Source: a virus (Duplodnaviria > Heunggongvirae > Uroviricota > Caudoviricetes). From it: a DNA stretch of 22,963 nt. The stretch spans positions 1-22,963 of IMG/VR virus record IMGVR_UViG_2802429249_000003, one strand, 5' to 3'. The position numbers were made by a program. Below are positions 1 through 3,000 of this stretch, piece by piece; positions within the stretch are counted from its first letter, which is position 1, and each line of letters opens with the position of its first letter.

Positions 1-3000
1 CTGGTCGCTGGTCGCTGGTCGCTGGTCGCTGGTCGCTGGTCGCTGGTCGCTGGTCGCTGGTCGCTGGTCGCTGGTCGCTGGTCTGGCAGCATAGGATCAT
101 CCTTTTTCGAAAATCAATGCTTTTTTTTGGAAAGTACTTAAAAATTATCGTGCTGGCTGAATCAATAACCAGCAAAGGGTATTAAGTGTGGGTGCGTTGA
201 GGATGCCTGACACATCAGAGATGGCGGGAGATTACTTCCCCCGCCTGGTCACTCTTACTCTCCAGATTCGTAGTCTACGAAAACAGCGACCTCCGTCTGG
301 CCGGTTCGGATTCGTACCTCGCAGAGGTCTTTCCTCGTTACCAGTGCCGTCACTATGACGGTTAAACAGATGACGATCAGGGCGATTAGCATCGCTTTTT
401 GCTGCTTCATAGCCTGCTTCTCCTTGCCTTTCGGCACGTAAGAGGCTAACCTGATGTTGTCATGCATAGGGAGCCTCAGATTAATGTTAAGCGTCTTGCC
501 GGACGCATAATGTTAACTGGGGCTTTTATCTATCTGCCTTTTGGTGTTCATGCCTGAGACAGATAGCCTCAAGCACCCGCAACAATTCTACAAAAAATCA
601 TCTCAATTTCAATTTTACTGTATTTCTGCAACCAGCCTTCCAGATGAGCCGCGCCCAACATATCTGTCCATTTCCAGTCTGATATCAAGCATCATCAACA
701 TCCCATCAACTATCCCTTCAGCCTTTTGCAACAAACGACCAACCCAGCAATCCGAACGACCATGCTTTCGTGCCAGTGCCATAAACGTCATTCCTCTTAC
801 GTAATAATCCACCAGCAAATCATGCAAATCACTGTTATTCTTTTTCAGGCGAGCCATGCATCCACAAATGATCATCGCATCATCATCACAACATTGCGGA
901 CGTGATTTAACCTTCGAAGGAATAAGCCCCTTGAATCCAGCAGCAATGGATGACCATGTAACATCCTCGTGGTTATTTGCCACCCACGCCCCCCAACGCT
1001 CAAGAACCATCTGAATATCACGCATCAGCGCAGCACCTCCTGCACCAGTTTTTCAAACTTTCCGACTCTGGTTTCCAGCTCTGCCACACAATCCACCAGC
1101 TCATCCACTGCTTTTTGTGCGCGATGTTTCGCCTGCATCAGTTCCCTGAGCGCTGGCACCATATCCCGACGAATGGCATCTTTTGTTACACCTGTTTTTT
1201 CCAGTTGTTCCGCCTGTCGCAACATTTCCTGTGCCTGTTTACGCAATTGTTCAGGGGTAAAAGTCATTGTCTGGTTGTTCAAAAGAAACGCTCCATCTTA
1301 CTGCTGTCAGTTCGTTTGTTGCTGTATCTGCGCGGCTGGGGCTGCTGCATTGGAGTGGAAAGAATCTGTGCGCTTTCCTGATCCACAGGCAGAAAATGTC
1401 CGTTATAAAAACGCCGGTAAATCGTCCCCAGAGAACCGTTACGTTGTTTCGTGATATTGATTTCTGCTATGCCCCTGGCCTGCGTATCCGGGTTGTACAC
1501 TTCATCCCTGTAAAGCATCAGAATGATGTCTGCATCCGCCTCTATTTCTCCGGAATTTTTCAGGTCTGAGTTCATAGGGCGTTTATTGGGCCTGGACTCC
1601 ACACCACGGGAAAGCTGGCTCAGCGCAATCAACGGAAAACCACCGGATTTTGCCAGGCCTTTAAGCCCCTTTGAGATTTCACCCACGGCAAGGTCATGAC
1701 GCCCCGTGGTTCGGGTTTTTATCAGCCCGAGATAATCAACCACCACCAGCGCCGTTTCCGGATGTTTAATCAGGTGATGTTTCGTTGTTGCGCATATCTC
1801 ATCAATGGCCAGGTTCGCCTGGTCCACCATCCAGATATTGCGCCCGGTCATCCGCCCCACTCCTTGTGAGAAACGTGCCCAGTCTTCGTCTTCAAAGTGA
1901 GCGACGGATTTCAGGCGTGATACCGGCATTCCTCCGGCCGCAGATACCATGCGTTCACCAATCTGGATGTTCGCCATTTCCATTGTGAACAGAAGAACAC
2001 CATGCCCCTGCTCAGTCACCTTGTCGATGATATCCAGCGCCAGTTCGGTTTTGCCCATCGAAGGACGAGCCGCAATAAATACCAGGTCGCCGGGTTCCAT
2101 ACCGCCTGTTTTTGCGTCCAGTTCATCAATACCGGTCATTAACGTCCTGGATTTCTCCAGCCCCAGATTCCGGCATTCAACACGCTCAACCACCTCCGGA
2201 AGCACATCATCAATATGTACCGGCTGAATAACGCCCTTTTCCGTCGACAATGAGGCCATCATGTTCTGCGCAGCCTTCAGGGCATCTTCAGCTGCTTCAC
2301 AGGTATGCGCATCTCGTAATTTCTGCAGCGCCTCATTCAGTGTTTTTTCTGCATCGCGCAATGCGGCATTGCGCCGCAACGCTGCAACATAGTGCTCCAG
2401 TGACGACTTCACCCAGGTTTTGCGCCCTGTATCAGTAATCACCGGGGCAAGTTCCGGCATCTCATTGCACAGCAGCACAGGATCAATCACACCTGAAACA
2501 CGGGCCTGTCTGCAGATGCCTGTGTAGATATCCCGATACGCTCGTACAGAAAAAACGTCCGCCGGTAGTGTGGCCAGAATATCCATCACTTCATGATCTG
2601 CCCCACGCAGAAAGAACGCGCCAATCACAGCACCTTCCAGGTCATCGTTACGCCAGACTGGTGTTGTCATGCAGCCACACCTCTGATACGAGAACGATAG
2701 CTGGGCCAGTTAAACGACAACCAGTTGCGTCCCCCGTCTGTGATCCTGTCGGCAATTCGGGGACTGATGAACGCCCACAACTCTTCCGGTGAGAGATTAC
2801 TGATCAGGATGGTGGGCAAGATACTTTCGTACCGGGCGTTGATAATTTCCTGCAAAATAGCCATTTCAGCCGCACTGCCAAACTGAACGCCGACTTCGTC
2901 GATGATCAGCAAATCCATTGACGCATAATGCTCAATAACTTCATCCGCTGTTTTTTCGCTGTCATTCCGCCAGCAGTTTTTCACAGCACGGGTAAGGCGC

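Follow-up and report, generated by a model that had tools for sequence, protein, structure and literature searches.

A probable hok/mok/sok module between Q and the late promoter of a phiP27-like lambdoid prophage

A gene for a Hok/Gef-family toxin lies directly downstream of the gene for the Q antiterminator in IMG/VR record IMGVR_UViG_2802429249_000003, a stretch of 22,963 nucleotides from a tailed phage (hereafter, the window). This arrangement raises the question of which transcripts reach the toxin gene. A preliminary description of the sequence had placed hok in the position taken by stx genes and had suggested that read-through from the late promoter would drive the toxin during lytic induction, unless an antisense RNA blocked it. 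Positions 186-612 quite probably hold a complete type I hok/mok/sok module, one that belongs to the HokW/HokD subgroup, travels as cargo between Q and pR' in a phiP27-like lambdoid prophage, is released on induction and hastens lysis. The role of the late promoter in this picture turned out differently from what had been proposed.

The toxin gene, its mRNA and the Sok antisense gene

Translation of the ORF at 255..410 (-) gives a product of 51 amino acids, MKQQKAMLIALIVICLTVIVTALVTRKDLCEVRIRTGQTEVAVFVDYESGE. In a Pfam profile search, this product matched HOK_GEF (PF01848) with an E value of 1.1e-22 and 79.8 bits (cut-off 22), and the NCBIfam Hok subfamily profile scored 54.3 bits, under its strict 73-bit cut-off. 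The protein is identical to HokW of phage 933W at 49/51 residues, to HokC of E. coli K-12 at 40/51 and to the Hok of the related contig L146 at 51/51; R1 Hok shares 29/52 residues with it. By analogy with HokW, the window copy is likely to be toxic at the inner membrane. We found a Shine-Dalgarno sequence, AAGGAG, at 425-420 (-), and the ORF list contains a 70-amino-acid mok frame (255..467, (-)) that extends hok at its N-terminus and in frame. The annotated mokW (933W) and mokC (K-12) have the same layout, each ending at the stop codon of hok. Both the toxin gene and the in-frame extension to 467 had been named in the preliminary description, and both were borne out.

The neighboring Q gene (615..1025, (-)) encodes 136 amino acids and matches Pfam Phage_antitermQ (PF06530) with an E value of 1.5e-51, which is the Q21/Q933W family (bioRxiv 10.1101/651190). 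Over residues 1-129, the Q proteins of Stx2 phages, 933W among them, are 79-82% identical to the product. Because the hok module joins at the end of the gene, the last ~7 codons depart from those of Q933. On their common strand, Q and hok are separated by 204 nt (end of the Q stop codon, 615; hok ATG, 410), the distance first reported, and a terminator scan predicted no terminator-like sites in this interval. The early region is 96% identical to that of E. coli phage phiP27. We found no tRNA genes within the window. The flank past 13.3 kb matches E. coli only across a 3-kb accessory gene.

A promoter scan of positions 1-1100 detected a single site, a predicted sigma-70 promoter for the hok mRNA (P_hok, 585..612, (-)). 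This promoter starts 2 nt past the Q stop codon and has a -35 hexamer TTGAAA (612-607), a 16-nt spacer and a -10 hexamer TAGAAT (590-585), with 10 of the 12 hexamer positions matching the consensus. Transcription is predicted to start at ~578, which is also where position 1 of the Rfam model RF01794 aligns. The -10 hexamer and start region are invariant in PhiR12_3, a relative with the same Q-hok junction, and in hokW of 933W, though the latter does not adjoin Q; the promoter and leader were also found in hok loci distant from any Q.

The predicted full-length hok mRNA (~390 nt, 186..578, (-)) has the 5' end GGGUGCUUGAGG and a 3' end just beyond the fbi element. We aligned the leader (405..578, (-)) to RF01794 and obtained 116.9 bits over the full model, 1-157 (gathering score 59, E value 2.2e-26), while the full-length transcript, folded from 578 to 186, had a minimum free energy (MFE) of -156.2 kcal/mol (z -7.1 vs shuffles). 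In the MFE structure, the tac element at the 5' end (567..578, (-)) pairs with 190-202, which is the complementary fbi element CCUCAACGCACCC (190..202, (-)); the homology to hokW and PhiR12_3 stops just past fbi. An alignment of the leader to known hok/sok fold-back elements, one of the checks first suggested for this locus, gives a match that is not due to chance. The tac-fbi pairing is retained in all 47 of the aligned homologues that cover it and also appears in the RNAalifold consensus of 49 homologues. Its pairs are nearly invariant, that is, conserved without covariation support, and this speaks neither for nor against the structure. Across the 49 hok mRNAs, 3 of 112 pairs showed compensatory changes, a thin signal because the homologues are very close. 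The three pairs (G-C<->A-U) fall in a GC-rich 3' hairpin (223..245, (-)) that is part of the MFE structure and is the only helix with such changes.

Other elements of the family were recognized by comparison with the Rfam consensus structure, in which tac has an alternative partner. This is the box AAAAGCCCC at 519..527 (-), which we take to be ucb by analogy with the R1 model; the Rfam structure line pairs GGG-GCUU with AAGCCCC as the tac-ucb stem. When the fbi region was removed in silico, the MFE structure of the 3'-shortened mRNA was a local 5' hairpin and not the published tac-ucb active fold. The mok start codon (467-465) falls in the loop region of the Sok-target hairpin, GAGGC...GCCUC (442..477, (-)). 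No other stretch of the family alignment varies as much as this hairpin, which has 18 variants among 49 sequences and the top column entropy. Downstream of the mRNA, the terminator scan found a terminator-like hairpin with a T run (141..174, (-)), and a similar hairpin and T run follows hok in PhiR12_3.

The preliminary description had expected a Sok-like antisense RNA on the + strand around 410-540, which came close to the position found. A putative Sok gene of ~71 nt was placed at 459..529 (+) from its homology with sokW as annotated in 933W, with a single-stranded 5' tail complementary to the mok start, a long hairpin at 471-524 and a U tract. It is identical to sokW at 63/71 positions, with all of the differences in the 5' tail. 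The hairpin and U-rich tail fold at -31.8 kcal/mol (z -5.1), and the geometry is that of the annotated sokC. A candidate promoter (P_sok, 424..452, (+)) would consist of the -35 hexamer TTGCCT (424-429), a 17-nt spacer and the -10 hexamer TAACCT (447-452). These hexamers are tentatively placed by position and homology: the region is identical to the sequence preceding the annotated sokW start in 933W, while in the consensus promoter scan the site fell below threshold, TAACCT being a weak match. A minus-strand Sok, suggested by a "sok" match in Rfam, was rejected, as the model spans the hok leader in sense and ends at the hok AUG.

Proposed role of the module

How such a module would act can be proposed from the family paradigm and from HokW. 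In the lysogen, unstable Sok in excess would block translation of mok and thereby of hok, and the stable hok mRNA would be kept inactive by its fold-back until it is trimmed at the 3' end. Once the supply of Sok ends, Hok would enter the inner membrane and the membrane potential would collapse. The layout of the locus suggests how induction might bring this about: early pR transcripts fresh from Q would cross the locus in the hok-sense direction, supply extra sense RNA and collide head-on with the sok promoter, with which they may thus interfere. Hok would then be freed before holin and endolysin are produced and lysis would be faster, as was measured for hokW-sokW in the Sakai prophage Sp5. 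There, HokW is toxic and is neutralized by sokW, and hokW mRNA and sokW RNA are both present before mitomycin C treatment (PMC8621323). On treatment, sokW is lost and HokW appears, in a RecA-dependent manner and ~1 h ahead of endolysin R (PMC8621323). Against the proposed interference, hokW mRNA does not rise in Sp5 after induction (PMC8621323). A deletion of the locus, which the preliminary description had proposed as a check on lysis timing, has already been made for hokW-sokW: growth arrest came ~40 min later and phage release was halved (PMC8621323).

In an uninduced lysogen, the module may also serve as an addiction or abortive-infection device. It is conceivable, if somewhat doubtful, that host defence is in fact its main role, so that the module kills when an incoming phage stops host transcription or when the prophage is lost. 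The genomic neighborhood fits such a role. Wherever the sequence of a relative extends far enough, a gene for an HsdM-family methyltransferase/endonuclease and a gene for a specificity subunit come after the module; they form a BcgI-like restriction-modification pair located between hok and the late promoter cassette. The module has a promoter of its own and both RNAs of its homologue precede induction, and R1 hok/sok lowers the plating of T4 (Pecota and Wood 1996, as cited in PMC8621323). Against defence as the main role, the sole experimental phenotype in the HokW subgroup is an acceleration of lysis together with an increased phage yield (PMC8621323). The two roles are compatible with each other.

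The restriction-modification genes are separated from hok in these relatives by an array of heptamers, present in 8 to 119 copies. In the window, the array (CTGGTCG)n occupies 1..83 and is cut by the contig end (TRF: 11.9 copies, 100% matches). It is separate from hok/sok and marks the next element of the island in the Q-pR' junction; a literature search on the repeat unit found nothing relevant.

We think it very unlikely that the locus is instead a decaying, non-functional remnant, like most chromosomal copies in E. coli K-12, where IS186 directly adjoins hokC. Pedersen and Gerdes (1999) are reported to have regarded the K-12 hok copies as inactivated. Decay does occur at the same position in other prophages: three of the six E. 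coli relatives examined with the Q-hok junction (L034, L118 and L119) share the same +1 frameshift in hok, so that not every prophage with hok at this site keeps the toxin under selection. In the window, however, we found an intact copy of each element: hok, mok, the Shine-Dalgarno sequence, P_hok, tac, fbi, the Sok terminator hairpin and the sok promoter region. The identity of Hok to the L146 protein is complete despite a DNA identity of 95%, its close relative HokW is toxic, and few columns of the 49-sequence alignment vary less than those that code for Hok.

The late promoter cassette in relatives

To place the module relative to late transcription, we defined the pR' cassette of this Q family from 13 loci in 5 genera as TTTACGaTCGTAAAA-N9-TATnnTG-TTAAGAGTGGTTAC-terminator. 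The cassette is kept near Q from Escherichia to Xenorhabdus and corresponds to the annotated pR'/qut of 933W, where it overlaps the 3' end of Q, so that pR' might be expected there in the window as well. The 26 species-representative Q loci served only to define the cassette, and hok was found within 10 kb of Q in 0/26 of these genomes carrying the Q family. We searched the whole window for the 933W cassette by BLAST and by pattern (2 mismatches allowed) and obtained chance-level matches only. P_hok has neither the palindromic TTTACGaTCGTAAAA element nor the TTAAGAGTGGTTAC initial transcribed region and is without similarity to the pR'/QBE cassette.

The relatives show where the cassette has gone. 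The L146 contig is 95.0% identical to window positions 15-4331, with 135/136 identical residues in Q, and its gene order is Q, hok, heptamer array, HsdM/HsdS-like pair, cassette (384-477, ~3.86 kb past Q) and tRNA genes. The cassette comes after hok, at 3.8-4.3 kb downstream of Q, in L146 and in seven other relatives (PhiR12_3, L033, L034, L086, L140, L145 and the split contig L125/L141); this count covers the checked relatives that share the Q-hok junction and whose sequence extends far enough downstream. As the window stops 185 bases past the hok mRNA, the position of pR' in this genome is taken from these relatives. The cassette would be expected here as TTTACAATCGTAAAA...TTAAGAGTGG and a terminator, beyond the HsdM/HsdS-like pair and ~3-4 kb after hok.

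These positions bear directly on the proposal that hok sits where stx does, as a late-operon moron transcribed from a Q-modified late promoter and restrained by Sok alone. The gene does follow Q on the same strand, and in relatives with enough sequence (L033 and L034) its place is between Q and the genes for holin and endolysin, so that the Q-to-lysis interval had been named correctly. A moron of the stx type, however, is located downstream of the pR'-QBE-tR' cassette, as the 933W annotation shows for stx and its Q-cognate pR'-tR' cassette, and is transcribed late with no promoter of its own. hok precedes the cassette in L146 and the seven relatives, and its module appears to include a near-consensus sigma-70 promoter whose -10 and start belong to the hok module. 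Both arrangements can be seen in a single genome, the Stx2b prophage L034, in which hok comes before the cassette and tRNA-stx2b just after it. Neither the stx-like slot nor late read-through into the toxin is thus borne out, and we regard a late moron as highly improbable. Because hok has its own promoter and the cassette lies past it, read-through that reaches hok would come from the early pR operon and not from pR'. On this layout, hok reads as cargo in the Q-pR' junction, predicted to be crossed by early rather than late transcripts. We give hardly any credence to the idea that P_hok doubles as a Q-loading promoter, with a hok transcript that functions in place of the short pR'-tR' RNA, since only its position, at the site of pR' in 933W, favors it, while P_hok lacks the cassette elements, its sequence and that of the leader recur at hok loci distant from Q genes, and the genuine cassette is found further downstream in relatives.

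A single further hok/sok locus, with 96% protein identity to the tested one, adds little alone. What the locus does illustrate is that "downstream of Q" is not the same as "under Q control," as cargo in the Q21/Q933W family can displace the late cassette by several kilobases. This matters for predicting when prophage cargo, toxins included, is expressed. Orientation may matter as well. We found hok co-oriented with the early operon in the window, in hokD of the Qin prophage, in 48 of the 80 best IMG/VR hok loci and in 933W once circularized. A broader model, which we offer as speculation and would not expect to hold in full, is that the Q-pR' junction of Q21/Q933W prophages regularly receives cargo, which is then transcribed as part of the early operon and not the late one, and that hok modules of lambdoid prophages are co-directional with early operons (in the nin region, the Q-pR' junction or, in the pL direction, beyond attP). 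With pR or pL derepressed, polymerases might then run through hok in sense and meet the sok promoter head-on, which would supply the step that joins induction to the disappearance of Sok seen for hokW, with Hok as an induction-triggered lysis accelerator; here, the module, the BcgI-like system and the hypervariable 7-nt repeat would form a three-part defence/lysis island. Co-orientation with early operons offers a testable explanation for which induction step removes Sok, a question left by the study of HokW (PMC8621323).

Comparison with known systems

hok/sok in the window is an ordinary member of its family in an uncommon place. The closest known system is hokW/mokW/sokW of 933W and Sakai Sp5, with 93% nucleotide identity over 184-591 and the same mok layout, sok promoter region, Sok hairpin, P_hok -10 and start, tac and fbi. 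The two differ in the 5' tail of Sok and in the N-terminus of mok (MHDNI... versus MLNTC...), which makes cross-neutralization doubtful. They also differ in location, as hokW sits at the attR end behind the tail genes and the window copy between Q and pR'.

hokD (relF, in Qin) and hokC/mokC/sokC (gef, in K-12) share the family, the in-frame mok and the antisense Sok geometry, and in 4,593 of 5,426 E. coli genomes the leader is ~90% identical. Like the window copy, hokD resides in a lambdoid prophage and points the same way as the early rightward operon, but its place is after relBE, ~1.9 kb upstream of a lambda-type Q. The paradigm of the family is R1 hok/sok (parB), with a stable mRNA locked by fold-back, mok-coupled translation, an unstable antisense Sok and a membrane-depolarizing toxin. 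Its tac-fbi pairing is reproduced in the window mRNA; R1 hok/sok is a plasmid post-segregational killer, whereas the window module is prophage cargo.

Two comparisons concern position. The stx genes also lie between Q and the lysis cassette in phages with the same Q family, but they are downstream of pR'-tR' and tRNA genes and Q-dependent, whereas hok is upstream of the cassette with a predicted promoter of its own. The same order of Q, cargo and displaced pR' cassette is found with nmpC in DLP12, where the cassette is at L121 4195-4277, and with a GIY-YIG nuclease gene in phiP27, where the cassette lies 1.35 kb past Q; cargo between Q and the cassette also occurs in PhiR40_1 and C. braakii. 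The cargo in these cases consists of other genes, without a toxin-antitoxin system, and nmpC, unlike hok, is on the opposite strand.

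The hok-mok-sok module downstream of Q

The window corresponds to the full 22,963-bp contig PTSK01000046.1 of assembly GCA_002965205.1. Its 136-aa Q antiterminator gene (615..1025, minus strand; PF06530, E 1.5e-51) shares 79-82% identity with Q of 933W and other Stx2 phages, PF06530 being the Q21/Q933W family (bioRxiv 10.1101/651190). On the same strand, 204 nt beyond Q, lies a 51-aa Hok/Gef toxin gene (255..410; PF01848, E 1.1e-22), which confirms the preliminary description of a hok locus after Q. The upstream extension that it had proposed as a mok frame also holds: an ATG at 467 opens a 70-aa minus-strand ORF in frame with hok, a layout identical to annotated mokW and mokC, which have their stop codon in common with hok.

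A promoter scan of window 1-1100 found a sole consensus sigma-70 site, the predicted hok promoter P_hok (minus strand; -35 TTGAAA 612-607, 16-nt spacer, -10 TAGAAT 590-585; 10/12 matches). The predicted start at about 578 coincides exactly with the first position of Rfam model RF01794 (GGGUGCUUGAGG), which matches minus-strand positions 405..578 at 116.9 bits (gathering score 59). RF01794 bears the name "sok"; because the match runs in the hok sense and the final model positions align to the hok AUG, we assign it to the hok mRNA leader and do not read it as a minus-strand Sok. The RNA from 578 to 186 has a minimum free energy of -156.2 kcal/mol (z -7.1). In the predicted fold, the 5' pairing element tac, the first 12 nt of the mRNA, pairs with the 3' element fbi at 190-202 (CCUCAACGCACCC), and tac-fbi is the outermost helix in the RNAalifold consensus of 49 homologues.

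A Sok RNA had been expected on the plus strand around 410-540, and we found a predicted Sok gene at 459..529 (plus strand), identical at 63/71 positions to annotated sokW of 933W, with every difference confined to the 5' single-stranded tail. The 44 nt 5' of Sok match 933W exactly (TTGCCT-17-TAACCT), and the RNA is predicted to form a long hairpin with CUUUUAU on its 3' side (z -5.1). The mok-start stretch paired by the Sok tail varies more than any other part of the family alignment (18 variants among 49 sequences, the window's variant recurring in L088 only), a pattern that fits diversification of Sok specificity. At the level of sequence, the module can be shown to retain all hok/sok elements intact, its own predicted promoter included.

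A heptamer array beside restriction-modification genes

Window 1-83 is a perfect (CTGGTCG)n array of at least 11.9 copies, where the assembly ended. Copy number across relatives is 8, 9, 15, 18, 33, 78, 81, 82 and 119 (the regions concerned include 3731-3816 in IMG/VR contig L146, 8968-9083 in Stx2b prophage L034 and 5503-6083 in relative L001). In every case hok is on one side of the array and a BcgI-like HsdM-family methyltransferase/endonuclease gene on the other, with about 90 nt between the array and the usual start of that gene. Directly 5' of the array is a conserved sequence with an SD and two ATGs that are out of frame with each other (AAAAGGATGATyyTATGCTGCCAGAC; window start codons 89-110). 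At the loci checked, the frame from the second ATG fuses to the enzyme at n = 2 mod 3 (n = 8, 29, 119) and that from the first at n = 0 mod 3 (n = 9 in L146, and the PGAP long ORF of L034 with n = 15). By frame arithmetic, n = 1 mod 3 should give fusion from neither ATG (short second-ATG ORF in L001, n = 82). From these sequences we regard the array as a candidate switch, phase-variable or length-variable, of the prophage restriction-modification system; we found no literature on the CTGGTCG repeat unit. Opposite-strand ORFs annotated as "YXWGXW repeat-containing protein" or "hypothetical" are made of repeat only and are probably artefacts. The linkage of BcgI-like restriction-modification genes to the module makes a defence or addiction role attractive, one that is compatible with a lysis-helper role and does not exclude it.

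The Q-hok junction and the late promoter cassette

The Q-hok junction was present in 29 of 5,426 complete E. coli genomes and the hok leader alone in 4,593. Among the best 80 IMG/VR Hok loci (at least 92% identical), Q was directly upstream of hok in 2, and in 48 the downstream flank was Qin-like and identically oriented, a nin-region position upstream of Q; at the Q loci of 26 species representatives with this Q family, hok was found in none. Six E. coli copies at the junction were inspected: three are intact (L001, L033, L120) and three, in E. coli prophages including one Stx2b prophage, have a common +1 frameshift, a one-base insertion at hok codon 9 with TTAATTCGCC replacing TTAATCGCC (L034 9267-9423; L118 5767-5923; L119 5767-5923). 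Such decay in relatives would favour reading the window's hok as a decaying remnant too, a reading we disfavour because each element is intact in the window copy and a 95%-identical relative has the very same Hok. This relative, L146, matches window 15-4331 at 95.0% identity (Hok 51/51, Q 135/136) and extends beyond the window's assembly break point.

The preliminary description had also placed hok in an stx-like moron slot, where late-promoter read-through would drive the toxin unless a Sok-like RNA blocked it. In 933W, the putative pR', qut and terminator are annotated as overlapping and following the Q 3' end, with stx further downstream. Transcription from pR' is constitutive and is terminated close by (PMC7547250). 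Using a 105-bp 933W pR' stretch as probe, we found this cassette of Q-cognate late promoter and terminator conserved beside Q in Escherichia, Citrobacter, Trabulsiella, Xenorhabdus and Providencia. Its layout is TTTACGaTCGTAAAA, about 9 nt, TATnnTG, TTAAGAGTGGTTAC, then the terminator. Cassette positions include L005 1151-1255, L121 (DLP12) 4195-4277, L117 (phiP27) 3518-3589 and L146 384-477. In Q21/Q933W-type phages a 14-bp palindrome (TTTACGATCGTAAA) overlaps the -35; phiP27, with a Q of only 45% identity, has TTGCGGAATTCCAAAAA in its place and retains the transcribed part, which fits the palindrome as a candidate allele-specific Q-binding element.

A search throughout the window did not find the cassette, and the 37 nt that separate the Q stop from the start of the hok mRNA show no similarity to it. 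On the minus strand of L146, the order is Q (4742-4332), hok (4127-3975), heptamer array (3731-3793), HsdM-like gene (3642-1714), HsdS-like gene (1552-551) and pR' cassette (477-384), then tRNA-Thr and tRNA-Gly. The same order occurs in PhiR12_3 (cassette 4.3 kb past Q), E. coli KY177, three further relatives (L086, L140, L145) and the E. coli 04-00955 Stx2b prophage, where the cassette is immediately 5' of tRNA-stx2b and hok lies 3.9 kb earlier. Because the cassette follows hok in L146 and these relatives, the mapping identifies hok as cargo of the Q-pR' junction, outside the stx slot, and puts the module ahead of the late promoter cassette in the window's lineage. It disfavours hok as a late-operon moron, and the correction is worth keeping: a position after Q differs from one after pR'. 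That P_hok is itself a Q-loading promoter is without any supporting sequence feature.

Cargo at this point (nmpC in DLP12, a GIY-YIG nuclease gene in phiP27, hok with restriction-modification genes) has often moved the cassette 0.8-4.3 kb from Q. PhiR40_1 has one unnamed gene there, and its Q terminates at ...LEMDR; the C-terminal tail of Q appears dispensable. Over its early region the window is 96.3% identical to phiP27, and nucleotide homology (96-97%) spans the replication genes and ends about 50 nt inside Q, past a stretch of residues common to both (window 975-1026, L117 1792-1842), so the Q-hok module was acquired as one block. A second breakpoint lies near Q codon 130, at the start of the hok module, making Q mosaic at both ends.

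Elsewhere in the window, C4 antisense RNA and isrK (5206-5293 and 5318-5394, minus strand; Rfam, 84.3 bits for C4 and 65.4 bits for isrK) lie back to back and overlap the 5' end of a minus-strand ORF (4789..5451; 220 aa, Phage_ASH/pRha domains). This region looks like antirepressor control of the P1/P7 C4 and Gifsy-1 isrK type within this phiP27-like prophage's early rightward operon. The plus strand carries tandem tyrosine integrase genes (12061-13260 and 13587-14864, the second P4-type; NF007246, 903 bits) and, after them, a gene for a 932-aa SEC-C-domain protein (15134-17932; some E. coli have an accessory gene 93% identical to it). No tRNA genes were found in the window, and a second integrative element seems to adjoin the prophage.

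Proposed regulation and known counterparts

The hok/sok system of R1, known from work of the Gerdes laboratory, is the paradigm of the family. Following R1 and HokW, excess Sok in the lysogen would block mok-coupled hok translation and the tac-fbi fold-back would hold full-length hok mRNA inert; once Sok is gone, processed mRNA would be translated and Hok would depolarise the inner membrane. As no terminator-like site was predicted in the interval from Q to P_hok, early rightward transcripts that make Q may continue through hok in the sense direction, where they would collide with the convergent sok promoter. Like the window's hok, hokD in Qin is co-oriented with the early operon, as is 933W hokW after circularisation (attL int/xis and attR hokW are all on the minus strand).

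In Sp5, HokW is toxic and neutralised by sokW, and both RNAs are present before induction; after mitomycin C, sokW is lost and HokW appears, RecA-dependently and about 1 h ahead of endolysin R (Takada et al. 2021, PMC8621323). Transcript collision is a plausible, if rather unlikely, cause of this loss; if true, it would offer a testable reason for a step left unexplained by Takada et al. (PMC8621323). Deletion of hokW-sokW in Sp5 made growth arrest come about 40 min later and halved phage release (Takada et al. 2021, PMC8621323), and the deletion experiment proposed for the window's locus has therefore already been carried out on a near-identical one, where lysis was affected. The hokW/mokW/sokW module annotated in 933W and VT2-Sakai is 93% identical to window 184-591, and the window's Hok is identical to HokW at 49/51 residues, to the PhiR12_3 copy at 44/51 and to HokC at 40/51; the window's hok/sok is a further example of an already known kind.
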